A stretch of DNA of 64,000 bases from Psammoneis japonica (taxonomy: Eukaryota), in assembly GCA_008632985.1 (NCBI GenBank), contig QPGO01000098.1, forward strand, positions 62,001 to 126,000, read 5' to 3'. The position numbers and the translations under genes are program-made. The notes below the pieces were generated by a model. The model was not told the DNA's origin, did not search any database, and was given only the letters and a program-made list of their open reading frames with translations. Shown piece after piece: positions 1 to 54,399 of the stretch (positions within the stretch are counted from its first letter, which is position 1; each line of letters starts with the position of its first letter).

Positions 1-3000
1 ACAACAGTCCGATCGCGCAGGATTGCATCGATGTGCAATCTCATTCACAGGCAAAACATCCTGAACCAACCCAACGGTTCCAACTCTGTGTTTGGCATGA
101 CAATGCATTAAAGTTGCGTGCGTCTTCCAGTCGACTTGGTTGAAGACCTCTTCAGACCAAGAGTGCTTTTGCTTCATGTGCTCAATTGGCACAGGAGATG
201 CTGCTGCGTGTCGAATCTGGCTCTTGAAATTGGACGTAACAGCTCCTTTCTCGAGAAGAAAATTGGCAGCGCAATGAGGCAAGCGTGGTGCAGTTTCAGT
301 GTCACCAAAATGTTTGCCCTGGAATGCTCCAGCCAAGTGATCGGCCCGAACGTTCAACCGCACATTAAGAGGAAGTCGGGAAAGCGGAGTGTGGCGATCC
401 TGGTGTCCTTTAACCCATTCAACGGCAACAAAAGTGCCGCTCTTGTCTTGCACCCGGCATTCCTGTAAATCAAGAAAAGCATGAAGAATTTCGTTCACGA
501 CATCCCAATCCGGAGACAATGTGTGCGAGACATGGTGACGAAGAAGGAAATCCGTTTGGCTGTCCAAGGAGCATTCCTCACACTCAACGGGAGGAGGGGT
601 GTTGAGATTTTGGACTGCGTTCACGAGGGAGCTGTTGTCACACACAGACAAAAAGCCTTGCAAGAAAACCGCATCGCAAAATTCCATCAGCCGAAGCATG
701 AATCGAGACACAGATGACAGACCACATGCTTCCGCTCGGTGCGAAGCAGGGCGTTTCCCAAAAACCGGTCCAGCACAATCAACCAAAATAACTCCTTCAA
801 TCGTGAGTGTCCAACCAAAGGTGGCAGACTCGTGTGTGATGGAGCCGTCGCTGCCCATTTTTCCAATCGCAGTGCGAAGGGCATCAGCAATCTCAAACAC
901 GGAGCGGTGCAGGGTGAGGAACAACTCAAAGTCAGATGCACTTGGAAGAGCAAGCGGAGCATCAAATCCCACTCGCTGAAAGGAGATTGTCCAATGTCCA
1001 GTGTCGGCAGAATCAACGAAGATGGGAACAGCAGCAGAAGAAGGATGGGGAACCACTTCCAACGCACTCACCGAGTCAGCGCTCACATTGGACACCGGAA
1101 AAATTTCAAAACCCAAGGGTGATCGAATGTAAAGGAACTGTTCAGTTGAAGAGAAACACGCCGATGCCTGCATCCGCATTTGGTCCACTGGGACCACCCA
1201 ATCCCCTGAAGGCTCCCGTAAGTCGCAGGCATCTGAATTGCAGAAAAGAAGGCATGCGCGTCGCCATTGTTTCCAGGCGGCTGGGGACGGATTTTCCTGG
1301 TCAACAAAAATTAATCTGGCAGGTGCTGCTGGCTGGGGGATGGTTGTCCCAGCACTTTAGATTCATCAAGACTGAGGCCATCAGGAAGCGCAACATCAGA
1401 AAGCGTGAGAACCTGAAGAAACAGACGGCAATAATTTGCCAAGCATGCTTGACGATTGGCGAACATTCCTGACTCCAGGACCGCGTCCACAATGTGTTGG
1501 TCGTCATTGTGCTGAAGGGGAAGAACTCCACTCTGATCCAGTTCCATTCTGCCATTAATTCGAGAGAGGAAGGACCGAAGTGACATCAGCCATTTTGATT
1601 CAGAATGGGGAAGAACCGCAGTGACGTCATTGAGACAACTAATTCCTGTGCCCAGATGAAGTTGTGTCCACGAGACGGCAATGCGCAACAGCAAATTCGG
1701 CTGACCATCACCTCGCCAGTGCTTGAGAAATTGGAGAGCTTGAGCCAATCCTTGTTCCACATCTGGGGAGCGAAAACCACCGCCTCCCAACGAGCAAGGG
1801 CCACACAGAAGATCCCGTTTCGTGTTGCGGTTGTAGCCACATTCAGCAAAAACAGCTCTCATGGCTTTCCGTTGGATCTCAAGAAGTTGCTTGGGCAGGA
1901 AATGAGTGTTCGGGAGAACGCAGGCAACAGACGGAAGACAGCTTGCATGACAATGAGTCCAGGCATTGCTGCGGGTCATCGGACAGTTTCGAACAAGAGC
2001 ACTCTTGGAGTCGCTCTTTTCTTCAAGCTTGGAGCATTGAGTCTTCTGGGTTCCAACCGGTGACTTGTGGTGTCCCAAGGTCTTATGAGCCGAATGAGCT
2101 GACAGCTGAGTGCTGCAATGGGAGGAGGATCTGTCCGCCGTGTGTGTTTCCAATTCGAATTCATCGTGATGAGGTTTCAGGCGCGGCTCACCATCGTTGG
2201 TGAAAAGCCACTCGATGGCGTGGAACGAGCATTTTGGCAATTCCAGTTCGTGACCAGCAGCATTGAGAAGATCGCACCACAGTTGAGTGTCATGCTGCAG
2301 CTTCAATGCAAGATCGGCAGCCGAGGGTTGAGGAGATGCCCGAAAATCGTTTGCCTGGGTGGATGCATCGTCAACATAACCACGTGAGAACATGCGAAGC
2401 TGAATTGAACGGTCGGGAGATTCAAAGAACGCTCCATGCGCCTTCTGGTCAAACAAATCAAACAATGAATTGCAAATCTGGTTCCAACACTGGGGAGAAT
2501 TGCCACTGCCTTGACCGCTGCCATAAATCGGAAAATCAGCAGTGTGAGAGTAAGAATCCTGGGCAAGTCCTGTTTCCGTTCGAAGCCAGTGTCGAGCCTC
2601 GTGGAGGGTTTCCGTGGCAGACGCCGTGACCTGCTTGTCCATGCCAAGGCTCCTGCTCTGAACAGCACACACAGCCGGAAGGTTCCGATCACAACACGAG
2701 GTGCAATCATTGTCTCCTGACACAAGAGTCTTCCGTCCAGTCCTTGACATCTCAAGCACAAGTTCTTCCAAAAACACCGGATCATTCGCACATTTGAATG
2801 CTCTCGTGCCACAGATCCCTGGATTGCACAGTCGTTCCTGTTCCATGTGTTGTGCCAAAGCTCGCCACTTGACACTGCAGATGAATTGAAAATCCGCCTC
2901 ACAGATGTGTGCAACACGCAATCGGTGAATCTTGGCATTTCCCGGTTCCTTGAAAATCATGACATTCACGACATCTTTCCAGCGGTCGCAGGAACATCCC

Positions 3001-5228
3001 CACTTCAAAGCGCAGTTCAGCAAGTTCAAACGGATGTGGATGAGGTTAGTTTGGACCGCATCCAAGGCATCCTTCTCAGGAGTGGGATCTCCGCCATCAA
3101 GAAAGGAGTCAGAAAACGAGTGAGAGGCGTGCATCACTTTCCAATGACCAAGATGCATGCCGGACTTGACAGAAGTGGCAGTCGACTCAGTCCAGTTTTT
3201 GATCTTGGCTTCCAATTCGTTTGCCGAGACTTGGTTGGCAATCGAAACCGGGGAACGCCGTCGAAGATGTTGCACAAACGATGAGGTGGCTTCATTTAAG
3301 GAGTGAGTTTCGTGCTCTCCATCGAGAATCAAATCAGCCACAATCATGTTGCCTGAGAAACCAAGGTCTGCTGAGAGTGGAGGAACGGTCGGGGGAGTTC
3401 CTTGGGCCTGACCGAAATGGCACTGATTCCGATCACGGAGGGCGGAAGCAACTTCATCAGGAGCATCCACTGCAACCCATTCATCACAATCTTTAGGATG
3501 TGCTGCCGGATCCGCAGGAATCTGAACGCTGGCAACGCCTGCTTTGTGGTCTGAATCAAATGCACGAATTTTCCTGAAGAGCCTTGTAGTTTCTTCCGCC
3601 CTTCGTAGGTTGCGGATGATGTTGGCTTTACGTTTGGACTCTTTGCTGCCGTCTAGTTCCAATTCGGCAATGCGAGATTCAGCATCTTTCTCTCTGTGGA
3701 TGGCACTGTCTTTGGCGATCTGACGACATTCCTTCTGAGCTGCAGCTGACGCACGCTGACATTCGGCCAGATTTTCTGGTGGGATGAATCCTGTTGGGGC
3801 AGAGGCTTGAAGTTGTTTGATTCTATCCACCTGGTCATGCTTGGTGCGAATCATAGAGAGCAACCGATTTAGGATGTAGATCTTGTGCCAGATGGCGGCT
3901 AGAGTCACAGACCATTGAGGTTCACGATGACGTCAACACTTCTTGGCTGATGACAGGGACAATTGAAGAATGTCACGGTCAAGGCGTTCCGCAAGAGAAT
4001 GATCCGGAGCATTAGAATCTGACAGAGCTTGAGATCGTTCCAAAACATTTCTCTGATCCAGCATCGGTCCTAGATGCTTGAGGAACGTTGTGACTTGAGG
4101 TTTAGAAGAAGCGTGAATGTCCCGGAAAGCCGCCTTCGGTAGATCAACCTTGGGGTTCCCGAACAACTGTGTTGTGTCGAAATCAACGAAATGCGCACGA
4201 TGATCAGAATGTGTGCGACAACCAAATGGTTCGTACCCACCATGACGAGCAGACTCAAGAGCTCCTGGAGTCGCCAATGCGCAATCCAATCGGCGTTTCC
4301 CACGGGAGCAAGTCGAAAAATCCGTGTCTTTCATAAGATGACACACAACGTCAGAGAGGTCAAAGCGCTGTGCCATCGATGAGAGAAGGTCGTTGTCGTC
4401 AGTAAAATCTGCATTGAAGTCTCCACAGATGATGACCTCCCGATCAGGGTCAGACAAGAAGGATTGAAGGATCTTCGACAAGTCCTGACAGAACGCTTTC
4501 CGTGGGTCGAGAGTAGAGGATTCTCTTTGCCTGAGTAGAGACACTTGTTGTGCAAAAGCAGTGGTTTTGCCAGGGGAGTTTCGGTGTTTTGGACAAACCC
4601 GACAACAAGACATCACCACAACTTGGCGTCCTTGCTTGCCATCAAACACTTGAAAGGACCACCGGCCAAGAGGATCTGATTCTTGAGATCGAAAACGACC
4701 AGCAATCGAGTTGCAAGATAAAAGAGCAGTGCCACCTGGCTTGCAGGGTGAAACAAAGGAGATGTCACTCGTCGAAAAAGTGGCTCGACCATGATGCAAA
4801 GAATTGCGCACCGTTTTCAAACAGGCAGACTTAATCGGATGCTGAGAAGTGTCCAAACAAGTTTCCGAGATGCCTGTCAGGTCCGCCTGGATCTCNNNNN
4901 NNNNNNNNNNNNNNNNNNNNNNNNNNNNNNNNNNNNNNNNNNNNNNNNNNNNNNNNNNNNNNNNNNNNNNNNNNNNNNNNNNNNNNNNNNNNNNNNNNNN
5001 NNNNNNNNNNNNNNNNNNNNNNNNNNNNNNNNNNNNNNNNNNNNNNNNNNNNNNNNNNNNNNNNNNNNNNNNNNNNNNNNNNNNNNNNNNNNNNNNNNNN
5101 NNNNNNNNNNNNNNNNNNNNNNNNNNNNNNNNNNNNNNNNNGGATTGTGACAAGCCGATGAACGGCTGGGGGTGAGGCCGTGCTTCCACGAAGGAAGACT
5201 GAGGACTAGACCCGGATGGAGAAGGCAT
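1..5228 (-). pseudogene. LINE ORF2 (APE endonuclease, reverse transcriptase, RNase H), interrupted
   Basis: In-frame TGA at 3933-3935 (KKC*RHREP versus KHCRQHREP in the other LINE; likely CGA>TGA). Further breaks downstream of 1311. YVDD at 2367-2378. Confidence 0.88.
4896..5141. other. Assembly gap (N run)
   Basis: Run of N. Confidence 1.
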
Positions 5229-5296
5229 CCTGTCTGCGTCATGAGAAAAAAGCTGGTTAGACGACTGGGCCCGCCTTGCAGAAAATCCAAATCAGT

Positions 5297-6877
5297 TCAA
5301 TTCAAGTCCTCCATGGCAGTGTCGTTGGGAGGTTGTTTGGAGGAAGAGCCAGCGGGAACCAAAACTGCTGGGCGTTTGCGGTGCAGAGATTGACTGGACC
5401 CAGCAGACATGGCCACAAGAGACTCTTGAACAAGAGAGTGAACCTCATTAGATGAAGTTTCCAGTGAAGCCTGACAATGCTGCTCCAGACGCTCGACACG
5501 CTTTTCGTCATCCTGTTGAGATTGTAAGACGAGTTGCTTCAATTCGGCAACTTCTTGAGACACAGAAGTGAGATCAGACGCAGCAGGAGTGCCTGGAAAA
5601 ACCGTGCCAGGTGCACTCCAGAGAACTTGTGCGAAAGTTTGAAATCCACCATGAATTCCCACAGTGGGCGGGATTGGAGCCAAAGGAGGAGGTTGTGGCT
5701 GTGCCGATGGATCAGTGAGAGAACCAGAAGGAGAAATGTCAGAAATGTCAAGAGAAACCCAACTCTGGATGCTCGCAGATGTGATCGAATCTGCCGCATC
5801 GGAAATGTCATCAGCGACACCAGGGATCATCGGGCGGGGAGCGTTCACCAGAGGAACAACGTCGCCAGGGAGCTCATTGATCCAGCCAGGTAACTGTTGA
5901 GAGATCTGCTGCCCAATTTGATGAAAATGAGTCTTGTCAACAAGAACATTGTGCCGCGGAGTCTTGGCAAAACGTTTCGACGGAACAAAATCCAGTGCGC
6001 CGGGAATGGGGCTGATGACATGAGTTTTGGCAAGTGTTTTGCTTTGTTCACGCACTGCTTTGTCGAATTCGTCAGGGTGAGAACAACGCCACCGGGAAAA
6101 AATAAGGACCAATGGATGCGTTTTTAGAACTTCCAACAATGCCGTGATCATGTCTTTGGCATGCTGCCGCGGAGTTTCAACAGCATAAAACGTTGCACGG
6201 ATGGAAGGATCTTTGGGAGACTTGACAGAGTGAGGCATCAATCGGAAGTGAAGTTTGGACTTGGCACGAGGAGAGAGTAACTCCAACAACTTTTTCACAG
6301 CAAAGTCAGCCGGACAGTGTTTCGGGAGATGATCCATGAGGAGAGCAACGTGAGACAAGTTGACAATCGTCTCATCCCATTCATGACGCCGCATGAAAAC
6401 ACCATTGTCTTTCAAAACTTTATTGACAAATGGAATGTTCCGGACATCTGACAAGGACAAGGAAGTGCGGATGCGATGGGCGACAACAAAGGCAGGGGGA
6501 TGACGACGAGAGCCGCCGATGCGATGCACGACAAAATGTTGTGAGTGAACAAGACCAGAAGTCCATTCAACCACGTTGACATCAGAAAGGCGTTTGCCTT
6601 GGTTCGACACAATGGACACCTCATTCACCAATGGGTCTTGGGAGGCAGTCTGCTGCAAGGCATGAAGAATGGTCGCATGCCCCATGGCGAGAACCGTGGT
6701 GGCGTTGTCTTCAGAAGAGGTGAGTTCAAAACGAAGGGTGATCTCTTTCAGATCGGCACTTTCGGGACGGCCGGAACCAGTCCTGGCAGGAGTGAATGGA
6801 GCATTGTCCATGCCAGAGGGAGGATGAGGGTTGTGCTCACCGGGAGGGCTAGCCAGCGGCAGCGGAGGGGTCGTCAT
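5297..6877 (-). CDS. LINE ORF1-like protein (mutated)
   Basis: Long ORF directly upstream of the APE domain. Shares LKEITLRFE/FEEITVRFD and VNVVEW/VNVAEW segments with ORF1 fragments of the second LINE. Start taken at MTTPP (uncertain). Confidence 0.7.
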   Translation of the reverse strand: MTTPPLPLASPPGEHNPHPPSGMDNAPFTPARTGSGRPESADLKEITLRFELTSSEDNATTVLAMGHATILHALQQTASQDPLVNEVSIVSNQGKRLSDVNVVEWTSGLVHSQHFVVHRIGGSRRHPPAFVVAHRIRTSLSLSDVRNIPFVNKVLKDNGVFMRRHEWDETIVNLSHVALLMDHLPKHCPADFAVKKLLELLSPRAKSKLHFRLMPHSVKSPKDPSIRATFYAVETPRQHAKDMITALLEVLKTHPLVLIFSRWRCSHPDEFDKAVREQSKTLAKTHVISPIPGALDFVPSKRFAKTPRHNVLVDKTHFHQIGQQISQQLPGWINELPGDVVPLVNAPRPMIPGVADDISDAADSITSASIQSWVSLDISDISPSGSLTDPSAQPQPPPLAPIPPTVGIHGGFQTFAQVLWSAPGTVFPGTPAASDLTSVSQEVAELKQLVLQSQQDDEKRVERLEQHCQASLETSSNEVHSLVQESLVAMSAGSSQSLHRKRPAVLVPAGSSSKQPPNDTAMEDLN

Positions 6878-7418
6878 GGCGACGGCTGCTTGGCACACAA
6901 AACGCGTGGAATTCCACGTAGAACTTGCCAATGTGTGCTTGCGTGGAAAAGTGCCCTTCCCCAAAAAAGACCCCTCCCCCTTCGCGCGTTTCGAGCGCCC
7001 TCCCCGTGCATCCAAAAGAAAACCAAAAAAGTCCTCACGGTGGCGCGACGCCGGCCTCGGCGGCGAGGGCGGCCCGTCCACAGCAGAAACTCCTTGTTCG
7101 CATAGCTGGCTCCGGTCCGTCGCGATGAAGCGGGCGGCAGATCCCCGCCCCGCCGACTGCTGCATCTTCTTGGGAGTGATGTGTTGCGGTGAGTGTCGGC
7201 TCTTGTTTTGCCTTGATTTGCATCTGCTGGTCACACCGTCAGCTGGGATTTGTGAGACAATCTACTCACCCAACATCATTGCTGACTTGGACACACCTTT
7301 CCACCTGTTCTCTGGCAGGTTGAGCGCTGTGAACACTGTGAGCACCAACAGTGGAGCCACAGCATCTCTGCAAAGCTCGTGGTGACCAGGGCAATTGCGA
7401 ACGCGATGAGTGCTGCCT

Positions 7419-8941
7419 TCATGCAGAATTCCCATGTCTGGAATGCTTCCCGGGCTGGTCATTCCTGGTGGGACTTGAGGTCTTTGATGATTGAGGCCAG
7501 AGCATTGGTGCAGGGTGCCTTCTTGTTGGAATCCTTTGATCTGCTTTCAGATTCTTGAGCTTTGCGAAGATGACAACCTTTGTCTCCTGGATCATCAGGT
7601 GAGTGAGCCACCCAAGCGGAATGGCACTTGCACCAAAAGTGGTCTCGTCCCTTCTGACTCTTGTGGCGATGCTTGTGACCATTGACAGTCTTTGCAGGGT
7701 CACCGTCCTTTGGCGGAGTTTTCTTCCAGGCTTGTCCTGTTTCTTGGCATGCCTCAGGTTCTTGCTCTTGTTCTTGGAGTTCTGCTTGCCGCCACCTCCC
7801 TTGGACTTGTTGGGAGTGCTCTTGAGGGCCTTGGACAGCTTGAGATTGTGGTCCTTGATGGCCTCAACTTCCGGGGTGAGTGCAACAATCCTTTCTTGCT
7901 CTGGAGGGAGTGCTCCCCACTTCTCTGCTTGATCAAGATTGGTGTGCTTGTTGAGAGCCAGTTGCATGACTCATTCCAATGTGCAGTCCTCACCATCGTC
8001 ACACTTTTGCTCAATGTTGGCCATGCACTTGACAAATGCTTGGTCACCAGCTGCAGTGTAACCCTTGAATGGGTTGATGACTGGGTCATCGCAGCCTTCT
8101 CCCCTGGCTCTGAGGCCATCATGGTTGAGTTTGATGCACTCATTGAACTCTTCGATGTTCAAGTTGCAGGTTGACATGTGCAAGTCAAGGCTGGACAAGT
8201 TCTTGTGGAAGCAGTTTGCAGTCGAGCAAGTGTCCACGATGGCCTTTTGGTTGAGCAATTTGAAGAACAGTGTGCCAACCTGTACGTTGTTGATCTTGCA
8301 TTGCTTGCTCTCAGCGATGATCTTGTCTCCAGCTTCTGCAGTTAGCGTCTGAGAGATTGTCTCAGCCATCTGGACTTGGTTCTGGGCTTGCCTTGACTGA
8401 GCAGCCATGCAGGCAGCAGCATGATCACGCACTTGGTGATTAAGTCTCGATTGACTCTGTTGCTGTCAGGGATCAACATGATGTTGCCTGTTCCTGACTT
8501 CCATCCTGACTCTGCTGCTTGTTCATTTAGAACTTCACAGAACTTGTTGAGACCTTCAGAGTCTCCATTGAACTTGTGAGGTGGTGGAGCCGCAGCAGTG
8601 TTCCACAGCTTGAGACCTTGCGAGGTTCCGCAATTGACTCAGTTGTTTGGACAATGTTGACCAGGTGTCAACGCAAGTGCAGGTTGTGCAGCAGGTGCCA
8701 CAGGAGGAACCGGAGGCACTGGTGGTGCGCCTCCACCACCACCACCTGGTGGAGCAACTCCTCCACCACCACCTCTGCCACCACCCACAGGAGGAATTGG
8801 TGGAATCGGTGGTTCCTGTGCTGGTGTGGCTGCCGGTGCTGCAGCTGGAGCAGCAGCAGGAGCTGCCACTGGAGCTGGAGCTTGTGCTGGAGCTGGAGTT
8901 CCAGCCATTGCCAATGAGGTGCAGGTGGTCACCATTGTCAA
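7419..8941 (-). pseudogene. Copia-type (diatom CoDi-like) gag relic
   Basis: Pro/Ala/Gly-rich N-terminus, then ALTPG...GLKLW...KFNGD, and a C-terminal knuckle FWCKCHSAWVAH read across frameshifted minus-strand frames. No pol seen; the LINE abuts it at about 7230. Confidence 0.6.
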
Positions 8942-10975
8942 ATGGTTTTGATTTCAACCAATGGCTGGCTTGAAATCAAAGTTGCAAAGCAGGTTGCAGA
9001 GGAAGCATGTGGGATTCTACCTGGGACACAGGTCCTGTCTGTAGAATGTGCTGCTGACAATCAGCACAAGGTGCTCAAAGCCAGCAAAATGGCAACGAGT
9101 TGTCTCACTGACTCATGCTCAGTTGAAATTGTGAGCTAAAACTGATTTAAAAGTGATTCTCTTGTTTTGTGATCCAAGACATCTTGGATGATGCCGCGTC
9201 AGAAAATGGACATTCTTTGAACATCATTCATGTAGAATGTGTGCTGAGGGTCACGGTGGAGGTTCGACACTTGCATTGAAACTTTCTGATGTCTGACTCA
9301 GCCGTGTAGAAATTCTAAGATGATTGGACATCTCTGAATGTCCACAGTCTTTCTAAAATGTCACACCATCCGCTTTCTGGTCTCAGGCAATTTGTCCTCT
9401 TGACTTGTCCGTGCAACGCCCTGTAGAATGTCATGAGCCTCCATGATGATGTGAGATTGGAGTTGAAGCTCCAAGACATGATTGTGACATCCAATGAGGC
9501 ACAGGCCATTGGTCTTGCCATGTCTCTTGCAAAATGGAAGTCACAAAGTCCACCAATGTCTCTTCACTGTGGGCACGCAAATCTTCCATGGAGTCTGGTG
9601 TGACCAACTTTTCCAAGGAAGCTCGCAATGTTTTCAGAAGGGGTTTGAGCAGGTTCTCACAACAGAAATCAGAGGTGATGGTGAATGTTGGGTTGCCCAT
9701 TGTTCGGGTGGCCAATGCCACCCCAATGTGAACTGACACAGTCAGGTGGTCACCAACATCAATGGTTTCTTGCAAGAGATCCTTGAAACTCAAGTCCTCC
9801 TTGATCCTGTGTCTTGGTCCAGACATTTCCTCCCACCAGCCAATTTGTTCGCCACAAGATGCAGATTCTTGGCATTGCACAAGACGTTGAATGTTGATGT
9901 TGGACCGGCTCCCATGCCAAAACCTTTGGCACCTTGCCAGTGGAAAAAACTCATGTCGTTCGGTTTCCTCTGCTGGATCTGGCAGCATGTTCATTGTGCA
10001 ATTTACAAGTCCCGTGTGATGCAGAGGCTGACTCTTGGGAAAACAAAGGTCGTTGAAGCTGCGCTTGAGCAAACTCATCGCCAGCTCAAGCTCTCCCTCC
10101 TCAAAGGGGGAATGTGCATGGACATCCTCCAGCGTGCGCTTCACATCCGCCTGTCAGTCCAACAGCATCCACCATTTTCCCCTTGTGCACAAAATCAGAG
10201 ATGTTGAGCCCAGTCATTTTTTTGTGCCAATGGGCATGATGCCTGTGAGCCAAATTTTTGCACTGGACACCTGCTCCAGGAGAACCTTGACAGAACGGAA
10301 GAATGAAAAATGCTTTGCAAAGCGTGGCTTGATCTGGAATTGGACACTTTCACAGAGCTTCTCCCCGTGATGCAGAATCAATTGCAATGAGCCATCACGA
10401 ACAGGCTGATCACACTTGTCAACAAGAATTGACAGACGCCCTTTGTCATGTTGCACTGTGGTGCCCAAAGCACGAACCATTGTTGAAACAGATTGGTCTT
10501 TGATTTTCACCCCTTGGGAAAATGTTTGAAGTTTTCATTGAGTCGCTTGTTGTTCTCTAAAAGAAAAACCACTTTCTCCTTGATGCAACATTCAGTTTCA
10601 TGGTCCAGTGTTTTGCAGCATTGAACTTGTTTTTCTTCCTCTTTGTTCTCTTCACAATTGGAAAAGCAAATGGCGCCAAAGTCAATCCGGAGGATGCACC
10701 ACTGGTTTTGATCTTTCTCGCCAATGGAATGACTCAGATCCGTGTCCACGTTGGATTCCTTGTTGATGGAGAACAACTCGTCTGCAAGCAAAAACAGTGT
10801 GGTTTTCCCAAGTTGCATGGGACGAGCAAAACAGATGGCACTTTCCACAGCGTGGAACAGTTCTTCTAGAAACAAACTGTTGTCGCGACAGCTGCAGAAC
10901 TTTCGGCACACATTGGCAGCACCATTCTGATGGCATCCAGGGAAATGGAAGCCGGTTTGTTTGCTTCTCTTTGAT

Positions 10976-11018
10976 GCCCTTTCCAAGGGATTACACACTA
11001 AAGTCCCTTGCCCTTTCC
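10976..11018. mobile_element. 25-bp insertion with 6-bp terminal inverted repeat and 9-bp target duplication
   Basis: gccctttcc + aagggattacacactaaagtccctt + gccctttcc; the paralog has a single gccctttcc at 61922-61930. Confidence 0.8.
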
Positions 11019-11063
11019 GTATTCGATGATTTGGAAGGTCTAGAGAGCTAGTTGCTTGACGTT

Positions 11064-11269
11064 TGGGGGAAGACTCCAGCCAGCCACTGGCTGAAAAAAG
11101 TCTGCTGTCAGTGCGTTTGGGGGTTTTGCCAGTAGAATTTTTACGTACACAGAATACGACGAGTCTGTCCAGCGTTCACCAAAACCCCCTAACGCACAGA
11201 TTGACAGATTCGTTCAGTGCAAATTCTGCACAAGATTCTTCAGCCAGCAGCTGGCTGAGACTTCCCCCA
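11064..11269. mobile_element. Foldback MITE, copy 1 (4-bp TSD cgtt)
   Basis: Ends tgggggaagactccagccagc / gctggctgagacttccccca, flanked by cgtt on both sides. The empty site gacgttgctcat is present in the paralog at 61966-61977. Confidence 0.92.
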
Positions 11270-11814
11270 CGTTGCTCATGGTGGTGTTGGTGTGGAGTGC
11301 AGTACGACCATGCGAATAAGGGAATGTTTTTTTCATGCGTGCACGACGTTCGAATGAGATCTGGCGCCGTGATCATGTTTTCGTAAGTGAGACGCAGTCA
11401 TCTCAGAGAGCATTGTCTTACGAAATGGCCTCAGCATGTCATCTTAGCGTGTGATATCCAGATCACTTAGCACTTCTTAGTGCCTGCAGTGTGAAGCGAC
11501 AAACCAGCACCGTCTTCCCACCACCGAGGACGCCTGGAGCTGACATTTGCGAAGATGGGGTGCGCAAGCCCCTGAGGCATTGATGAGCAGCTCTGACTTG
11601 AATGTTGCATGCATTGATTTTAAATTGTTTGTGAAAGAAAAATATCATGCAAACTCTCATCGCGAATAGAATCCTGGGTTTGCCAGCTGCCAATGAGACA
11701 ATCGACTTTGGCATGGTGTGACAGTCTGCAACCAGAGGAAGGTTCAAAGGGGTTGAAGCCACTCCTAATTTGTGGGGTTGACGAGTTTTCATGTACAAAG
11801 GTTATGGACACCAT

Positions 11815-13227
11815 TTAAGTGTTATCAGCACCATTCCCCCTCATGAAAGGAACAATATGATTGGCAGCAAATGTTCGTACAATTTCATACTGCTCGGCTT
11901 CATCCACCATGTCAAGTAAATCAAGCTCATCTGCAACATCGTCATTGTAGTGCGGAGCTAGTAATCGCAGAGCATTTGCCGCTTCCTTGGCATAATTTCC
12001 ATCTGAGCTCACCTTTCCCTGACTTGTCGGCAATTCTCTTCGATTCGTTGACGACTTCTCTCCACCGTCCCAATTTGAGTGTCGCGATGCTCCGCGGTTG
12101 CCTCCACATGCTTCGGTATCCCCGTCCTGATTCGGGGAACTATCATTATCACTCATGTCGTCGGGTGTCTTGTCGGGACCGGTTCGAGAGCGTTTTGGCC
12201 GTGGCGCCTGGGAAAGTTTTAGAAGGAGAGCCTGAAAGGAGAGCCTGTCGGAGAGTGTGGAAGGAAGCGTTAATGGTGTGATACTTGTGGACTCGACCGC
12301 CAGGATGTTCTCTAGGATATATTTCGAGGCTGCCGCGGCCATGCTACCCTCTTGCACGAGCTTGAAAAGTGCAACACCCCCGGGGGCATCGTCACAATCG
12401 GCGAACCAGTAAAATGTCCAGGACGACTCTAGGTCTGTCAAAATAGATACGATTCCACGCATTTGGTTGAGAAACGCCGCCGCGAAGTGCTCGGCAATGA
12501 CTTGTGGACTGTGATCTTTGTTCGCAAGGTTTCTCGGTTTTTTCAGCTCCATCTGAGCATCAAACGAATTTCGGATAGTCTTGTGTTTCACGTCCTCTAA
12601 TGTCGTAATGACCACATCAGTTGTTCCTTTAATTCGTCTCGTGTCGGAATCCAACCCCCGAATTTCGACGTCTAAGAGACCCCGGATCGGCTGCACGTCC
12701 GCAAAAAGATAGTCGCCCGGTAACCGCATATTTTCCTTTAGATACTTCATGTAAGTGGTACGGTTCTCATAAGAATCTTCTGGGCTGCTATTCCACTGAA
12801 AAACGGGGCAATCGGGAAATGTCGACGGCATGGTGGGCCAACTCGCTGACTTCTCGGGCATATCCAAAAACATGCTCAACAAAGCCCGCTTGGATCTGAC
12901 CGTAGCATCCGAAAGAACAATGGTTTTACTCTTTGCTGCGTAATCTAAAGCCATGCTGACTAGCGCCGCCGTTTCCTCTTTGGTAAACAGCGCCGGGGGC
13001 GGCGGTGGTGGCTGCTGCTGCTGCGGCGGCGGCGCTTGCGGTGGTCCTAGTGTGTACTTGCCACCCGGTACAAGGGTTGCGAACCCCCTGACTTGATACC
13101 CCTCCTCGTCAATCAAACACTTGACACCTTCTTGGTCGAGCAATGTGTTGAGCTCCGCGTCAGTACTGAGTCGCACACGACCAACATCTTGTACGGTTAT
13201 TCCAACAGTTTTGGTAGCCATGGCCAT
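11815..13227 (-). CDS. Crinkler (CRN)-like protein: short N-terminal header, P/Q linker, restriction-endonuclease-fold domain
   Basis: Uninterrupted ORF of about 470 aa with normal Tyr and TpA content. Motif pattern KGTTDVVI...MELKK...QVIAE...SILTDL..W fits a PD-(D/E)XK fold. Family call is from memory of motifs. Confidence 0.7.
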   Translation of the reverse strand: MAMATKTVGITVQDVGRVRLSTDAELNTLLDQEGVKCLIDEEGYQVRGFATLVPGGKYTLGPPQAPPPQQQQPPPPPPALFTKEETAALVSMALDYAAKSKTIVLSDATVRSKRALLSMFLDMPEKSASWPTMPSTFPDCPVFQWNSSPEDSYENRTTYMKYLKENMRLPGDYLFADVQPIRGLLDVEIRGLDSDTRRIKGTTDVVITTLEDVKHKTIRNSFDAQMELKKPRNLANKDHSPQVIAEHFAAAFLNQMRGIVSILTDLESSWTFYWFADCDDAPGGVALFKLVQEGSMAAAASKYILENILAVESTSITPLTLPSTLSDRLSFQALLLKLSQAPRPKRSRTGPDKTPDDMSDNDSSPNQDGDTEACGGNRGASRHSNWDGGEKSSTNRRELPTSQGKVSSDGNYAKEAANALRLLAPHYNDDVADELDLLDMVDEAEQYEIVRTFAANHIVPFMRGNGADNT

Positions 13228-13886
13228 TGTGGTTACAAGTTCGTACCACAACAACTACTGTATGTAGAGATGATGTTTGAGATGTTTTCGATCGTACGGT
13301 AAGGAAGTGGTTCAGCCCAAGAAAAGGAAGAAGATAAGGAAAAATCTTTGTACTAAGATTCAGGTAGTATCCTACGTAGATTATGACGTCAGCTGTGGCG
13401 CTGCGCGTGTTTTCTGCGCGATGCCATGAGCGAAAAAGCACACGGAACGAACTCGTCGTGCGTGATGAGCCGTTGTCGACGATGGTCAATGCGGGTGTGG
13501 ATAGCCAGAGAAAGCACAAGGCGCTCCTTATTGACAACTGCATCTGTTGAAAGTCTCTTCTCCCATCTTGAGCTTGTTGTGGACTCGATTGGAAAGAACA
13601 TGCTGGAAGACAACATGGAAGCATGTTGTCTCTTTGGACCCAAGATTGTGGTGCCCAACGGCGTCTGCCTCGCTCGTTGAATGCAGCATGTTGAAGTGCA
13701 TTGGTTCTACTAGGGACAAGTCATCGACTGCCAGAGTAGATGAAAGGATCATGTTAGTTGCAACTACGTGGCAAATCACGATGATTAGATTTTTCCTTGT
13801 CTGGTTTCCTTGTCTTTCCTCATCCAAGGAAATTTGGGGTCGAATGAGGAATTCCCTGCGATCGAAAAACCTGTGCATGTGCTGTC

Positions 13887-14133
13887 CCTCCTTGCACCCA
13901 AGTTTAGATGGAGATGGACTGACTCAAACCAACCCCGCTCGATGACTGTGACCCCTTGCTTGACCCGCATTGGAAGTGGGGTGCTTCCGACTCAAGATGA
14001 CTCGGTCTGGTCTTCTGACTGTGACCGGTCAAACTTTGGTTTTCTTTTCTCTCACTTTTCCAGCTTTGTCGGAACAGGAACCCTGATCAATGTGACTGGA
14101 TCACTCAAGCTTGGAAAAGCATTCTTCTTTTTA
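13887..14133 (+). repeat. Split direct repeat A1
   Basis: Near-identical to 22304-22550. Confidence 0.95.
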
Positions 14134-14322
14134 GTCTCTCTCATCATGTTGGATTTCTTCGCCTCGGGTGTCTCTGATGATGCGTTCGTCGATTTGGCTC
14201 GTCAGCTCGAGACTGATGTCATCTTGCCGTTCTCGTTGAGCTCTCCTGCAGCTGCCTCTCCTCAGGCTCACCCCTCTGGGGCTGCATGACAGGGGGGTCA
14301 CAAGGGCTTAAATCCCCAAGGC

Positions 14323-16602
14323 TTGAGCGAGGACATTTCGGGGGGTCATGGTCATCACCAATCGGACATTGACAGGGCGGAGTTGGGGGAAGTCATTTCC
14401 CACCCTCCAGGAACTCACGTTTTGGAGAGAGACGCGTCCCGCCCATTTCAGAGGGAAGCTCGCTCCTCTCGGGCAGGCTTCTTTGGGCGGGATTTGGCGG
14501 GTGATGGTCGGAGCATGCTTGAGATGGAGGGGGAAGGTGCGTCTTCTTCGTCCTCGCATGTGTCTCGTTGTCGGATCACCTGGCTGGAGACGACTGGCGC
14601 ACCCCGATGCTTGGGAATCAAGGGTGGGGGGGCCACCTTCTGCCTCAAAAAGGCAAGCGACTGCAACGTGAAGCACAAGGGTGGAAGTGTGGACATCCCG
14701 GCCATGGGGATGGTGGTTGTCCTCAAGTCACCGGATGCGGGGTTTTGCCAGCCCATTCTAGACGGAGGAAGCATGTCAGGCGAGGTGTCAGCAATGTGGG
14801 AATCGGAGTCGGATGCCCCAGCCGGTTGGAGGCAAAAGTTCTTGGTGCTGTCCAATGGCGAACCCTTCTTCACCGAGGACGAGGTTGAACCAGCCCTGCA
14901 GGAGCATGAAAGGGCAGCCGTCTTCAAGACGCCGGCTCGCAAGGAATGGCCGGAACCTGCCCCCCTTCACGAACACACCGTGTTGGAGGGGTTCATCCCA
15001 CATGAAAACAGATTCTGTCTGCACCTGCGCAGTTCCTGGCGGCAAACAAGAGCCTGTCTGCTTTAGCCCGGGTTGTGCAATCTGCCAAGGTGGTTTGCGG
15101 CAAGTCGGAGAGGCACTGGCCGGACCAGGTGACAAGGCCGGAAAGCGATCCAATGCCATGGAGTCCATGCTTGACATTCTCAGCCGCAAATTGGATCAAC
15201 TCGATGCATCCCTCGGCACTCTGACGCAGAGCTTTGATGAATCCCTCCTGGCTCCCACCTCTGGGGTGCCTTGGCAAACGTTGCATGTCGTGAATCAGGA
15301 GTCCAGTCCACGGACCTTGTGGACCGCATCACGGAAGTGGAAACGGGTTGGAGAAGCCAATCCAACCACCTCGTAAGAACGTTCAACAACAGGCTCCAAG
15401 GGATGCAAGACCGGTTGGGATCTATGGCGAGCCGCGCTGACCTGGAAACCTTGAAGAGAAACATGCTCCAGGTCTGCACGCAGCTGACCTCAAAGGTGAG
15501 ATCGTTGGAGTCACATGGAGCTGCGGGGTTCTCACCGCCAGGTGCTGCCCATGATCAAGGCTCCGTGGACGCACGCCTCACTCGACTGGATCGATCAGCA
15601 AGTGAGCTACGTGCAAAGTCAGACAAATCAGCGATCATGTTTTCGGGGGCAGGCGCATCGTCTTACGAGGATTGCCAGGCTTGGATGACGCAACACTTCC
15701 CGTCGCGGGCTTGTGGATGTTTGACCGACATTGTCCTCCTCTTGGATCGGATCAAAGGAATCGAGCCAATGGCACTGCACCATTTTCTATCCCAGTGGAC
15801 AAAGCGAATGAGTGTGAACATCGAAACCGAGGAAGATGCGCGAACCCTGGCGGGCTTCCAATGTCGCACGCCTCGAATCCTTGACTCGGGATCTGTGAAG
15901 TCGACCCAGACCTTGGGATTGCATCCCTCATGCTTGGACAGGGTCGAGACCCACGAACACTGGTCATCAGGGAATGTGGGAACGAAGCACTTCATCGAGG
16001 GGAAGATCGCCACGGTGGAGAATGATGTCATGGAGGACATCAATCAGCGCATCAGACCGGGAACATTCGAGAGCCAGGTGGTGCAGGATGCGTTGTCGAA
16101 ATCGGTGGCCTTTCTGCGGGCGCTGGCACAGTTCATGGACTCGACTTGTGCATCACTCACCAACCTGAGCAAGTTCTCCAAGAAGAAAGCGTGGTCCTTG
16201 ACCACCAAATTAACTCACCGCATCTTCTGGGACATCCACAAGGTGCGCTCCGGGGTTTTTACCTCCATTTCAGGCACGGACCCAGACGCAGTGTGCAGCA
16301 AGATTTTGTGGGCGGTGTTTCGGACCCAGGACATCATGGCGGAGCACACGTCGCTGGGCTTTGCCGATCATCCCTCAATGGCATCGGAGTGTGTCAAGTT
16401 TCTTGCGACAAACTCAGGTTTCGAGGTGGCAACGGATTTGCAATCCTCTGTCCTGACGCTGACCGAGAAAGCCAAAAACGCCAGCTCAGAGGCCAAATCA
16501 GCCCAGGCGCGAGGGGATGCTGCTCACGTTGAGCTTGGAAAATTGTGGACGGAGATTAAAGACCTGACTTGTTGGCTCAAGGCTCTGGAGAACAAGAAGT
16601 GA
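14323..16602 (+). pseudogene. gag-like ORF1 of the YR retrotransposon (frameshifted)
   Basis: Consecutive ORF pieces 14323-15066 and 15271-16602, with a Cys/His cluster (CLG..FCLKK..CNVKH) and predicted coiled coils; position upstream of RT. Confidence 0.65.
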
Positions 16603-17477
16603 AGCTCACGGGGAATGGAGGATCTGCGGGAGCAGCAGGTCTCGATTGGCAGGCCGACTGACCTGGGGCATGTCATGCGAGGCCAAAAAGCCTTCTCTTT
16701 TCAGGGAGCTTGTTTGATTCTCACCTCCGGTCCCCCAATCTGGCTTTTGTCCATGAGACCAAGGGAATGGCCCACTGTCTGCTGCTGCTGCGACGACACT
16801 GCCAGCTCCCACTGGAGCCCCCCATTGGCAGAGTTGTTCCAGAGTCAGTTGGACGCCTCCTTGGCACGTGTCTCGTGGTCAAGTGTGGAACAACTGGCTG
16901 AGCAGGTTGATGTTGTTCTCATGTCGGGGCACCCTCGTTCCTTGAATCTGCGGCACACATGATGCGGTCGGCGCCCTTGATTGTGATCCCTGTGGGAGCA
17001 GTTTCCAGGTGCAGCCTCCTCAGACTGCACCAGTTGCAGCGGCGGGACTTGACACACGTGGTGGTGGGCGGTGTTGCGTCTTTTCGGACTGCGCTGTTCT
17101 GGCGGGGGGTTCCTGCACCGGCCCTCAACGGAGGCCTGCGGCGCTCTGTTGGGCACATCATTGATTGTAAGCTCCCTGGGTCGCCATCGCCTCAACACCC
17201 TCGTGGTGATTTTCACAAGGAGGGTGACCTTCTCAACCCACAGTTTTTGAACCGACCAGTCGTTTGCTCATCTCATCGGTCGTTGACAGGTTGGGTCACC
17301 CGCACACTCTCGGTGGATGAGATGCTGGTGGCCTGGGATTTCCCTCTGCATTTCCAAATGTCCCAGGTACATCGGGCTTTTGAGCGGGGTTTTTCACTTG
17401 TCCCATTGAATCTCCTCACCCTTTTTGTGGAGGCGTTTGTTGAGGGCACTCCCCGGGATTTGCCATGACCTGGGGGT

Positions 17478-20250
17478 GTGGACCATGGGGACACGGTGGT
17501 CAAGGTTCCACTTCTCGGGGCTGGGACTTGGCCACCAGGTCTTTGGCGGCATTTGCCGCACACATGGATTGACGCATCTCTCATGACGGCGAAAGCCGCC
17601 AAGGACGATGCAGCGGTGCCTCCTTTCCGGTTGTGGGACAAGCGGATGACCCTGCTTTTCCTGGGCTTTGGCAAGGTTTTACCTGCCCTTCAGGACTTGG
17701 CACACCAATGGTGGCGGCGGAGGACTCTTCGGTCCTTTCGAGCACATCTGCGTTGGGAACATGGGTCGACGTGGGTCGCCATGCTGGCGATGCAATGCCG
17801 GCGTTTTGGGGACGCTACCGGGCATCTTCGGGGGGGGTTTGTCGCCACCCTCCACTCCCGTCCTTGGTGCTCGATGCACACCTTGGGGCGGAGGCGTTGA
17901 CACAAGCATTGGGCAGCTCCTGGTGGAATTGGGACCGAGGTTCTTCCCTTTTATTTTGGCGATGGCCCACTCCGGAACAGCGAGTTGGGGCTCGGGATGG
18001 GATCCGGATGTTTGTCAAAGGTCCCCTCCCTCGCAATTGCCGATGGCAGCGCATCCGGGGGTCCGAGCATGAGATTCTCAGGATGGCGGACAAAATTAGA
18101 AAGGTCCAAGACCAAGGTGCATCCATCGTGGAAGGGTGATTAGCTCAACCGACCATTTCTGGGTCCCAAAAACCGTCCGGGTGGAACCCCAGAATGGTCG
18201 TCTGGTGGAAATCGTCGAGGACGTATGAATGGTTTATGATGGGACCTCTTCCAGGTTAAATGATGCCCTCTGGGCACCCTCTTTTTCTTGCCCACTCCCG
18301 CGTCGGTTCTGGGGTGCATGACCCGCTCTGCTTTTTCGGTGGACCTCGATCTGGGTGATGTGTTTTTGAACTTTTTCATGGATCCCAACATTCGACCACA
18401 TGCGGGGATGACTTAACCCCACTCAAGCCATGTCTCCCATCGCAGGAGTCGATCTCGGCAGGCCCGCTCTGGTTTGAGCGATGGAACCGTTTGTTTGTGG
18501 GCATGCGGCCCAGCCCCTGCTTGGCGGTGCGGGCATTCCATTGGGCCGATGAGATTGCCAGAGGTGATCCGAACCGAGTCTCCAACATCATGGGATGCGA
18601 CAGGCTGCTCCCAAACTTGCCGGGTGACCCAAATTTCCAGATGGAGAAACCGTTTGTCATGAAGTGGAATTCGCGTCGCAAGGAAATTGCTGGCGACATC
18701 AAAACCTTTGTGGATGACTTGCAGGGAATGGGGGCTAGCGAGGAATCCGCGTGGCAAGTTGCTCACCAAATGGCCTCGTGCTTGCAGCATCTTGGTCTGC
18801 AGAATGCTGCTCGAAAGGCACGCCCTCCTTCTCAGATAGAAACCGGAGCTTGGGCTGGCACCATTTTCCGAGTTGTCAACAGGATGTCACCCAGTCGGCA
18901 TCTCAGGCCAAATGGGGAAAGCCAAGGGCATCATCGCCGAACTGCTTAGTTTTTACGCCAAGCAGCCGGAGGGCTTTCTTCCCACTTTTGACTTCAAGGA
19001 TCTGGAGGGAAAGCGGGGGTTTCTAGTCCACCTTGCTGTGACTTGCTCTTTTCCAATGCCATTCCTAAAAGGGATCCATCTGACCCTTGACTCCTGGCGC
19101 CCAAATTGGAAGAAGGATGGTTGGGCGATGACGGCCAAAGAGTTTGCAAGTTGGGTTCACCACCTCGCTGAGAAGCAGGGCCTTGACCCGGCAGAGGTTG
19201 CTGAGGGGCTGAGGGATCAACCGCCCCCTCCGCAGGTCATGGCGGTCCCTCGTCTTTTCATGGACTTGACAGCCATGGCCGCATTGCGGAGTCGCCGACC
19301 CCTGCTGCGGTCATCATCAGGTCCTCGAAAATCGTCACCATCCTCCATGGCTTTGGTGATGCATCTGGAAAAGGCCTTGGCACCTCCTTGGAAGCAGCAG
19401 ACGGAACAATTGCATTTCGGATCGGTGTGTGGGGCGATGATGAACTGGGGAACTCATCCAACTGGAAAGAGTCATCCAATGCGGTGGATGCCATCCAAGA
19501 ACTTGGAGAGCAGGGAGAATTGACCGGCGCGTGTTTGTTCTTTTTTACGGACAACTTGGTTGCCGAAATGGCTTGGTGCAAGGGCACCTCTTCCAGCCCT
19601 CTTCTGCTTGAGCAGGTTGTCCGGTTGAAAACTTTGGAGGCTGAGCATGGGATTGGCCACATCTCATGCATGTCTCGGGGGGGCGGATGACAGCACAGGG
19701 TGCAGACGGAGTCTCTGGGGGAGTGTTGTCCGAGGGAGTCATGAACGGAGCCAAGATGCTGTCATTTGTCCCTCTCCATCTTAGAGCCACAGCATGGTCG
19801 GCCACTCTCTTCACGTGGGTTCAATCTTGGGCTGGAGCCCCTCCTCCGGAACTGCTGACCCCCTTGGATTGGTGTCAGAAGGGTCACGACATTGTGGGGT
19901 GGAATTGCCCAGCTTGCGAAGCAATCGAAATGCCCCATTTCAATGCGGGCACTTGGGTCTGGGCCCCACCTCCAGCCGCTGCGAGAGCGGCTCTGGAAGA
20001 GCTCCGGATCGCAAGGATCAAGCACCAGACATGTTTCGCATGTTCATCTGCCCACGTCTAATGACACCGGAGTGGCAGAAGCAGTTGCACAAGGCAGCGG
20101 ATCTTGTGTTCACCATCCCGGCTGGATCAAGGCCTTTCTGGCCAGGTGACATGTTCAAGCCCTTGCCAATTGGCCTCTTTTTCCATTTGTTTCCTGCAGC
20201 CCTTGGCAGCTTTGGGGAACCCCAAAAATGCATGCTGTGGACCGGTCCTT
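17478..20250 (+). pseudogene. RT and RNase H of the YR retrotransposon (frameshifted)
   Basis: VDLDLGDVFLNF, GMRPSP, KTFVDDL, WAGTIF (RT); GFGDASGKGLG, FFFTDNLVAE, AQGADGVS (RNase H). Confidence 0.85.
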
Positions 20251-20599
20251 GCGGCGAGTGTGGCCGGATGCTGCGGTGGACGAAAGGAACATTCTGCGCA
20301 AATTTTGTGCACAATGCAGGAATCTGGCCGGCATGTCAGAGAGCATGGTGTCCAGGGTGTTGCACTTCAAAAGAAAGCATGACTTTCCATCCAGGGGGGA
20401 CTCTGGTGGACGACCCTCAAAACGATGATGCGCAAACACACGGGGGGGGACCGCCCAAGGCTGGACGACAATGCGTGGCACCGGAAGCCGCAGGACAAAA
20501 ACAAGTTCGTGCGGGCGCGAGCAGGGATCATCTCATGGTGGCGTTTGAGTGTGACACCTGTGCATTTCACAAGCTGCACCAGAGGGAACCTTTGCCTCA

Positions 20600-21743
20600 T
20601 CACCTGAGATGAGGTTGCTCCAGCGTGCATTCGGCGGGTGATCTTGGATGCGTTTTGGAGCAGGGAGTCGACAACGGTCGAAGCAAATGCATCGAGAGTT
20701 GGAAGAGGCCTCGTCTTGTCTGAACGTCTGGGCCTGACAGGGCCTCACCTCGAGCCAGGTCCTCTCCCGTCCTGTGATCACTGTGGGCATGAGGTCGCCA
20801 TGCAGATGTCTTGGCTTCGACGGCTGCAGGAAAACACTCTGAATCGTACACTCAGTTTGATGCGATTCGAAAATCATGCGGCTCACTCCAATCAGGTGCG
20901 CGCCTCGGCGCAGGCCAATTCACGTGCTCCAGCATTGGGGGACTTGGAAGGGAAACAGCATCTGCGGATGTGCGAAGACCCGTGTGCCTCACTGTGGTTC
21001 CAACGTTTTATGACCGGATGCAAAAGAGGATGGGCCAAGATTGGAGGCCCGACAGAGCGATGTTGGTTGATGTCATGCAACATCTGTTGCCTCGGGTCGA
21101 GGAGAAGGCTCTTCGAGCCCCAGGGGAGGTGGACAGATTTGTGCACCTTGCACGTGGATTGCACTTTGTGGCTGGCTGCGTCTTGTCTCTTCGAGGTCCC
21201 GAAGGTCTTCTTGTGGACTTGGGGGCTCTTGTCAAACATCTGCCAAGACATGCAGAGCATGTTGTGGCAGAGTCAAGGGAGAGCATGGGGAGCGGCAGCA
21301 CCCCCAGTGTCAACGTCACCAGCTCAGGTGTCAACCTTCAGTTTTGGGTAGAAATGGCAGTCTCGCTGCACTGGGGCCGTCGGCGAACACGTGGACCAGT
21401 GATGTCGAATGTGGACGGAGAGGTCTTATCCACTGAAGAGCTCAACGCTTTCTTGCATGAAGTTTTGGGAGACATCTATGATGACCACCCAAGCCTGTTT
21501 GCAGCTGACATCACTTCGGTTGCTGACACACAGGACAAGTGTGATGTGAGTCATTCGTTCAGGAGGGGTTCGGACTCGCGTGCCATTGCTCAAAAGGTGT
21601 CGGAAGATGACATTGACATCGTCAACTGGTGGAAGAAGAAGGAAAGATCGGGTGCGGCACGACCTGCACATAAAATGCGCCAACACCACGCCGATGTCAC
21701 CCTTCTTTTACCCTCATTCCTACGTCATGCCAAGGCCATGTGA
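20600..21743 (+). pseudogene. Tyrosine recombinase of the YR retrotransposon
   Basis: SLRGPEG (Arg), HSFRRGS (HxxR), W, and MRQHHA where the catalytic Tyr is expected. Confidence 0.85.
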
Positions 21744-21855
21744 TTCGGGCGGTCGCAAGCCCTTGGAAACGTCAGGTCCCCGGAGAGCAGTCTTCCAGCT
21801 TCCTGCTCTCTGGATCTTTATGTTTGGTGGCCACTGCCCAGGATTCTCATCGGGG

Positions 21856-22306: not shown

Positions 22307-22550
22307 CCTCGCACCCAAGTTTAGATGGAGACGGACTGACTCAAGCCAACCCCGCTCGATGACTGTGACCCCTCGCTTGATCCGCATTGGAAGTGGGGCA
22401 CTTCCGACTCAAGATGACTCGGTCCAGTCTTCTGACTGTGACCGGTCAACCTTTGGTTTTCTTTTCTCTCACTTTTCCAGCTTTGTCGGAACAGGAACCC
22501 TGATCAACGTGACTGGATCACTCAAGCTTGGAAAAGCATTCTTCTTTTTA
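22304..22550 (+). repeat. Split direct repeat A2
   Basis: Aligns with 13887-14133. Confidence 0.95.
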
Positions 22551-22567
22551 CCCACCCACCACACCCT

Positions 22568-54300: not shown

Positions 54301-54399
54301 TGCACTGGGGGTGTGGGTTAGCTTGTTGCCGGAGTTGCGGGGTGGAAGCGCAGCAGCACTTTAAAGATGGAATTTTGGTTTTGTTTTGACTTTGCTTGT

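Follow-up and report, generated by a model that had tools for sequence, protein, structure and literature searches.

Probable locus-confined hypermutation of TpA to TpG or CpA in a transposon-rich stretch of Psammoneis japonica DNA

Two copies of an AAA-ATPase-like gene

The stretch of DNA analyzed here, referred to as the window, comprises 64,000 nucleotides of contig QPGO01000098.1 from Psammoneis japonica (assembly GCA_008632985.1, positions 62,001 to 126,000). It harbors two copies of a gene of the AAA-ATPase_like family, a hypermutated pseudogene (copy A) and a paralogue (copy B), whose comparison is the subject of this report (Table 1). Copy B had been described as near-intact by an earlier reading of the sequence alone, hereafter the sequence-only reading. 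It contains an open reading frame (ORF) of 467 amino acids (60574-61977), and the 186 residues at its end are encoded in a different frame (60071-60688). Because these out-of-frame residues match a homologue at 88% identity, copy B has a single frame break, and the description is fair. In the alignment of the two copies, copy B is one base short near 60,630 (an estimate), within the overlap 60574-60688; the break could be genuine or could stem from the assembly. The Pfam search recognized PF09820 in copy B with an E value of 9e-14, but in copy A with only 1.5e-3.

The local alignment of copy A (from 9356) with copy B (from 60293) comprises 1718 columns, with 144 mismatches and 49 gap columns. 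The mismatches are 130 transitions and 14 transversions. Read from B to A, the mismatch sites comprise 27 CG>CA, 26 CG>TG, 25 TA>TG, and 21 TA>CA, in addition to six sites forming three TA>CG dinucleotides and 39 sites of other classes. This agrees with the sequence-only reading that the differences fall nearly all at TpA or CpG and are mostly CG or TA in copy B opposite TG or CA in copy A. The eight substitutions it had counted between 61767-61880 and 10821-10940 were all found, five at TpA and three at CpG, and its six protein changes were recovered as Y42C, G47S/Y48C, Y101H, Y112C/V113I, Y126C, and Y144H. As for composition, copy A has 9 TAs (observed/expected 0.08) and 40 CGs (0.42), and copy B has 60 TAs (0.51) and 89 CGs (0.96). 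From 59 ancestral TAs, copy A has lost 53, and from 89 CpGs, 55.

Direction and target of the change

For the polarity test, the 17 longer sequences among 32 homologues of copy B were aligned to copy B as outgroups; one homologue, P0005, was excluded because it is itself mutated. The two copies differ at 105 codons, of which 31 are synonymous and 74 change the residue. At these 74 amino-acid differences, the outgroups sided with copy B in 65 cases and with copy A in six, and three were tied. Fourteen tyrosine (Tyr) codons of copy B are Cys, His, or Arg codons in copy A. At ten of these positions, 12 or more of the 17 outgroups have Tyr; of the other four, one carries Phe in 15 of the 17, and three are not conserved. 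Since both the outgroups and the conserved tyrosines side with copy B, TA is the ancestral state and TG/CA the derived one, which is the polarity previously proposed.

Substitution rates were then counted with copy B as the ancestor, and A>G was tallied on both strands. A>G was found at 53 of 115 TpA sites, 4 of 283 ApA sites, 6 of 233 CpA sites, and 3 of 242 GpA sites. The comparison of TpA with the other A contexts (13/758) gives an odds ratio of 49 (Fisher p 5e-40), and the supposed elevation at TpA thus persists after polarization. C>T was found at 52 of 177 CpG sites versus 11 of 611 sites elsewhere (odds ratio 23, p 2e-26), as expected from the claim that CpG decay accompanies the TpA change in copy A. 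The 59 aligned TAs of copy B became TG in 25 cases, CA in 21, and CG in three, whereas six were kept and four fell in indels or other changes. These counts, with nearly equal numbers of TG and CA, show that the process is strand-symmetric, as had been claimed, and that one hit abolishes the target. The sequence-only reading had also invoked a weaker AA target and the WA signature of polymerase eta; neither was borne out, as ApA is not above GpA or CpA.

Regarding the flanking bases, T-A-Y was mutated in 37 of 64 cases versus 16 of 48 for T-A-R in the A/B comparison (p 0.013), and in mixed contexts the TAY strand was mutated 17 times versus 7 (p 0.03). The TAs surviving in depleted DNA were analyzed with an internal baseline instead of the island baseline, which was confounded by base composition. 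Their share relative to expectation was 0.36 for T-A-T, 0.99 for T-A-C, 1.25 for T-A-G, and 1.27 for T-A-A. A preference of the TpA change for a 3' pyrimidine is tentatively suggested.

TpA loss and CpG loss

Three tracts of the window (1-7 kb, 14-23 kb, and 42-55 kb) have a TpA observed/expected ratio of about 0.1 and yet keep CpG at 0.7-0.9. In the zones 30000-41000 and 59000-60000, besides the TpA loss, the CpG ratio is about 0.02-0.17 in most bins, and TG and CA reach 1.8-2.3. For the zone 30-41 kb taken by itself, the CpG ratio is about 0.05. The CpG retained in TpA-depleted tracts argues against error-prone repair triggered by 5-methylcytosine (5mC) lesions, which had been suggested as a cause of the TpA change. 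In copy A, 5mC-type CpG decay is a second, separate process, independent of the TpA loss.

Restriction to one copy

At sites outside CpG and TpA, the two copies diverge by 32/1369 (2.3%), against which the TA loss in copy A amounts to about 1.1 hits per site. Six TAs are common to both copies, 53 are private to copy B, and three are private to copy A, all of the latter opposite gap columns. Among the synonymous differing sites, 13 have TA in copy B only and none in copy A only, so selection on copy B is no explanation. With 53 TAs lost from copy A, none lost from copy B, and this synonymous asymmetry, a uniform genome-wide bias fails for this pair, and the process is regional, as proposed from the sequence.

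The mutated tract in copy A ends sharply near 10,975; TAs are retained in the 5' leader and in roughly 19 codons at the start of the gene. The edge may mark the border of a chromatin domain or the point where younger DNA begins. Located at this edge is a 34-base insertion found only in copy A. A 10-base motif is repeated at its flanks, and one contig of a public DNA run is without the insertion.

Both copies also carry, in their 5' ends, a roughly 210-base miniature inverted-repeat transposable element (MITE) whose terminal inverted repeats span 21 bases and whose target duplications span 4, and both insertions retain TAs. The two sites are 53 bases apart and therefore represent independent insertions. 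Contig depth at the MITE is 3000-5000 versus about 52 for unique sequence, which suggests a copy number of 60-100 or more. As both MITEs retain TAs, repetition alone is not the trigger. Fungal repeat-induced point mutation (RIP) responds to repetition; a trigger of that type was considered here and rejected, given that multi-copy island elements and the abundant MITE retain TAs.

Recurrence in reads, other repeats and homologues

Contigs from the public DNA run (depth about 52) differ from copy A at 4 letters in 636 bases and at 4 in 238 bases, whereas a paralogous contig of the same run has 60 differing positions over the same 636 bases. The expectation that the reads carry the TG/CA bases is therefore confirmed in part: the letters of copy A were matched, but the run is probably the source sample and not independent of the assembly.

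If each of two copies decays on its own, a site that was once TA or CG shows CA in one of them and TG in its partner. For this, the CA<>TG double transition was compared with the seven other double-transition classes in repeat pairs. The pair of long interspersed nuclear elements (LINEs) gave 24 CA<>TG versus at most 9 in any other class, and the pair 28.2-29.7 kb and 33.5-34.9 kb gave 40 versus at most 9. In the pair 21.9-22.3 kb and 22.6-23.0 kb, 10 of 12 double transitions were CA<>TG, and 36 of 39 mismatches were transitions. The LINE ORF (1314-3932, minus strand) contains 0.7% Tyr versus 2.2-4.4% in 55 homologues. Of its 12 conserved Tyr columns, two keep Tyr, seven have His or Cys, and three have other residues, whereas the 55 homologues have His or Cys at 0-2 of the same columns.

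One of the 32 homologues of copy B, P0005, carries His or Cys in 10 of the 13 columns where Tyr is conserved; in each of the remaining 31, the number is 0-2. It is 87% identical to a protein of Cylindrotheca fusiformis (P0004), and the most frequent differences between the two are I>M, Y>H, Y>C, N>D, T>A, and V>A, each of which is a TA>TG/CA codon change. The DNA of P0005 is present in two metagenome contigs, L002 and L003, which are 99.5% identical over 1993 bases. In L002, TpA observed/expected is 0.19-0.29 in the gene part (500-base bins), and the 2.4 kb upstream are normal. Positions 1-2400 of L002 are very TA-rich, with ratios up to 1.47, and the switch occurs near 2470, close to the gene start.

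The metagenome scan with a single protein gave no matches, and the scan with the family alignment resulted in 14 loci, including 4 close relatives. The named relatives of the copy B family (Cylindrotheca, Bacillariaceae, Seminavis, and Attheya) are all diatoms, as is Nitzschia inconspicua, a named relative in the second family tested. No database match exceeds 77% identity. Judged by these mobile or multi-copy genes, the window is probably raphid pennate diatom DNA rather than DNA of Bigelowiella natans.

Depleted tracts, islands and elements of the window

Over the whole window, TpA observed/expected is 0.16. The depleted part, about 87% of the window, contains 292 TAs in 55,259 bp, with ratios of 0.09 for TA, 1.58 for CA, and 1.56 for TG. 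The three islands contain 333 TAs in 8,153 bp, with ratios of 0.60, 1.20, and 1.21, respectively. The edges between depleted and normal DNA are sharp. Table 1 summarizes the features. The mutated sequences are LINEs, other repeats, and the pseudogene copy; some multi-copy elements are spared, and the window is without a certain single-copy host gene. Loose contig ends flanking other copies elsewhere have about 15 TAs in about 290 bases, a weak hint, from a small, noisy, hand-counted sample, that TpA is not scarce in the genome as a whole.

Table 1. Features of the window, with positions counted from its first nucleotide.
Feature	Position	Strand	Description
Copy A	9356..10975	minus	3'-truncated, frameshifted pseudogene of AAA-ATPase_like (PF09820) family; hypermutated tract
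Copy B	60071..61977	minus	near-intact paralogue, one frame break
Copy A 5' end (about first 19 codons)	10976..11063	minus	TAs kept (alignment, TA map)
34-base insertion unique to copy A	10976-11009		at mutated-tract edge
MITE-like hairpin in copy A 5' end	11064..11270 (end approximate)		4-base target duplication; TAs kept
Same MITE family beside copy B	62025..62237		21-base perfect terminal inverted repeats
TpA-depleted tract	1..10950		LINE, other repeats, copy A
Island 1, normal TpA	10950..13800		479-aa ORF
TpA-depleted tract	13800..55000		8.6-kb element, CpG-poor zone about 30-41 kb, second LINE
Island 2, normal TpA	55000..57900		observed/expected 0.45-0.84
TpA-depleted tract	57900..59800		contains assembly gap 58411-58752
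Island 3, normal TpA	59800..62250		copy B and its MITE
TpA-depleted tract	62250..64000		
LINE	1314-4895	minus	endonuclease and long ORF
Second LINE	48963-54013	plus	
247-base direct repeats	13887-14133 and 22304-22550		95.5% identical; bound the 8.6-kb element
479-aa ORF of multi-copy family	11818-13254	minus	island 1; not hypermutated

The 8.6-kb element has a GC content of 56%, is TpA-depleted, and carries plus-strand ORFs. It looks like a long terminal repeat (LTR) element, and no Pfam domain was found in it, even at an E value of 5. The island 1 ORF contains 2.7% Tyr; of its seven conserved tyrosines, five are kept and none has become His or Cys. Its database relatives number 54, with up to 74% identity, and some of them come from marine transcriptomes. 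The search of this ORF against Pfam returned no domain, and its protein-atlas look-up returned only unnamed oomycete-type clusters (score 0.91). One relative carries PF12550, which we take to be a DNA-binding domain seen in Crypton-type elements.

Since hardly any TAA or TAG is left in the window, long ORFs are spread over all frames, 83 of them with at least 150 amino acids. In such DNA, gene-prediction programs would call too many genes, and Pfam matches collapse in the mutated copies. The Pfam search of 135 stop-to-stop ORFs, and then of 14 at E values up to 5, resulted in almost nothing in depleted DNA, and the Rfam and tRNA scans gave no matches.

Discussion

We consider it likely that the window records a DNA-level, strand-symmetric, and locus-confined hypermutation of TpA to TpG or CpA, of the same kind as in Bigelowiella natans. 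The counts establish which way the change runs, that it is specific to one dinucleotide, that it affects both strands alike, and that only one of the two copies was hit, and the change recurs in other families and samples. Under this explanation, hypermutation would have come near saturation over most of the transposon-rich window. Copy A would have been mutated after its split from copy B, which would have been spared. Each TA would take a single hit and then no longer be a target, as in CpG decay, and the TpA process would run alongside 5mC-type CpG decay but independently of it. Its role may be to disable transposons and pseudogenes without creating stop codons, and we infer that it could be a genome-defence system.

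The sequence-only reading knew of no description of the process, but the main text of a 2026 preprint (Mettrop et al., bioRxiv 10.64898/2026.01.13.699255) describes TpA-only de novo hypermutation, to TpG or CpA, of integrated viruses in B. natans. In its mutation-accumulation lines, two integrated viral regions received 231 of the 302 nuclear point mutations; with a single exception these were A>G or T>C, and all 230 of that type lay at TpA. The rates in these viral regions were about 1000 times the background, in some lines only. According to the same text, TpA-depleted windows form 124 clusters in the genome, transposon domains are overrepresented among low-TpA coding sequences, and an ADAT2-like adenine deaminase is proposed by the authors. 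The main text holds no flanking-base analysis, and a term search of it returned no mention of diatoms. In our full-text literature searches, this preprint was the sole description of TpA-directed hypermutation found, and nothing was found for diatoms.

The likeness to B. natans, as far as the preprint's main text describes that system, is close. In both systems, TpA changes to TpG or CpA depending on the strand, and regional clusters with TpA depletion and CpA+TpG enrichment lie beside normal DNA. The changes in B. natans are almost only A>G and T>C, and both dominate the changes of copy A away from CpG. However, B. natans is a chlorarachniophyte (Rhizaria), whereas the relatives found here are diatoms (Stramenopila). 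The giant-virus insertion of B. natans has an observed/expected ratio of 0.45, and the depletion here is far deeper and more continuous, with 0.09 over about 55 kb; the criterion for a cluster there was a minimum of three 1-kb windows, and the depletion here is far more continuous than that. The targets described there are integrated viral and foreign DNA, whereas here they are transposons and a gene pseudocopy, and no viral insertion was recognized in the window. The phenomenon is known in kind, and the window appears to be a new, far more extreme instance in a second lineage.

Other known systems share only part of the signature. Fungal RIP also produces regional bursts of transitions in a fixed dinucleotide context and disables repeated DNA. 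However, RIP changes CpA to TpA and lowers GC, whereas the change here runs in the reverse direction, raises GC, creates no stop codons, and removes TAA and TAG. RIP is triggered by duplication, and here copy B, the island 1 element, and the MITE (about 60-100 times single-copy depth) retain TAs. A repeat-sensing trigger is not supported, as multi-copy elements escape. CpG decay by 5mC also acts on a palindromic dinucleotide, yields TG and CA, and removes the site with one hit, and it acts on copy A and the 30-41 kb zone as well. It differs in target and base change and is uncoupled from the TpA loss, as several tracts are TpA-poor with CpG kept. ADAR and APOBEC likewise hypermutate by deamination as a defence against viruses and retroelements, and ADAR favors a 5' U, also according to the preprint's discussion; they act on RNA or on a single cDNA strand, whereas inherited genomic DNA is changed here on both strands.

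Alternative explanations were weighed against the same evidence. TpA decay could be uniform over the genome, so that old DNA is worn down and the islands, copy B included, are recent arrivals. In favor of such decay, about 87% of the window is depleted, the island elements are multi-copy and look young, and the MITEs inside copy A and beside copy B retain their TAs. We nevertheless consider it improbable, since, at 2.3% background divergence, copy A lost 53 TAs and copy B none, and the 13 synonymous TA-type differences are all TA in copy B, which selection on B does not explain. In addition, the mutated tract has a sharp end within copy A, near 10,975, and the contig ends elsewhere have a normal TA density in their small, noisy, hand-counted sample. 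A classical RIP-like CpA>TpA change in copy B, with TG/CA ancestral and only CpG decay in copy A, has almost no credibility left. From the pair alone, TA versus TG/CA is readable either way, but with TA ancestral this change is excluded: the outgroups, conserved tyrosines included, carry the state of copy B at 65 of 74 residues. Copy B also retains its 467-amino-acid ORF with a single frame break, and an ancestor with a TpA ratio of 0.08 would be abnormal for coding sequence. The fact that the sole read-level check comes from the probable source sample leaves some room for an error of sequencing or assembly, for instance if modified TA were consistently miscalled. This is highly improbable, considering that the same assembly contains islands with normal TA, that two separate metagenome assemblies carry the hypermutated homologue with 99.5% identity, and that the signature is real in the mutation-accumulation Illumina data reported in the main text of the B. 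natans preprint. We assign an equally low probability to ADAR-like adenosine editing of RNA that retrotransposition then wrote back as DNA. The mutated elements include LINEs, and A>G with a 5' U fits the ADAR preference, according to the preprint's discussion, but the products in copy A are symmetric (25 TG versus 21 CA), and in the LINE (bins over 1-4 kb) the TG and CA ratios are alike. Moreover, whole tracts are affected, with unrelated elements and the DNA between them. The 3' G preference of ADAR was not seen.

Regarding the chemistry, our leading guess, held tentatively, is that an enzyme deaminates adenine to inosine at 5'-TA where the DNA lies in silenced chromatin, and the deaminating activity possibly favors a 3' pyrimidine. 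The main rival, which we consider unlikely though less so than any of the alternatives above, is a lesion on thymine with the same signature, in which a modified T at TpA, such as an oxidized or hypermodified thymine, or aberrant glycosylase repair would cause T>C on either strand. A>G is inseparable from T>C on the opposite strand, and TA is palindromic, as expected of a maintained base mark. In dinoflagellates, 5-hydroxymethyluracil occurs preferentially at TpA. Aberrant excision of T by thymine-DNA glycosylases is also reported, but in a TpG/CpA context (PMC4041421). However, we are aware of no pathway by which modified T would become strongly mutagenic towards C, the present data give no sign of base modification, and the sole published proposal, in the main text of the B. 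natans preprint, is adenine deamination.

Several points weigh against the hypermutation proposed here or its details. Deamination is a guess, as A>G on one strand is indistinguishable from T>C on the other. The enrichment of product tetranucleotides that would match the 3'-neighbor preference was not seen (Spearman +0.46, the wrong sign), and the preference is therefore treated as a lead only. The support from reads comes from the probable source sample. The diatom assignment relies on sequence matches of two mobile or multi-copy gene families. Finally, all three islands could be younger insertions, so timing and targeting are not fully separable within one window.

If the explanation by hypermutation is true, a process so far reported for one chlorarachniophyte also shapes diatom genomes, and more heavily, and comparing the genes shared by both lineages could narrow the search for the enzyme. 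A natural adenine editor at TA in double-stranded genomic DNA would also be of interest for base editing. It is conceivable, although rather doubtful, that diatoms and chlorarachniophytes, and perhaps the wider Stramenopila-Alveolata-Rhizaria (SAR) group, share a chromatin-targeted TpA editor of silenced mobile DNA that runs to saturation, possibly with a heritable TA mark. Such a mark at the palindromic TA may underlie the defence and decay like 5mC at CpG. A shared editor would destroy Tyr, Ile, and Leu codons and protein-family signatures and remove stop codons. The hypermutation would explain the poor annotation of repeat-rich diatom DNA, in which Pfam matches collapse and long false ORFs occur in every frame, and low TpA with high CpA+TpG would be a simple flag for silenced DNA. 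With a shared editor of this kind, large parts of the 'dark' repeat DNA of diatoms would be hypermutated transposons, invisible to homology searches.

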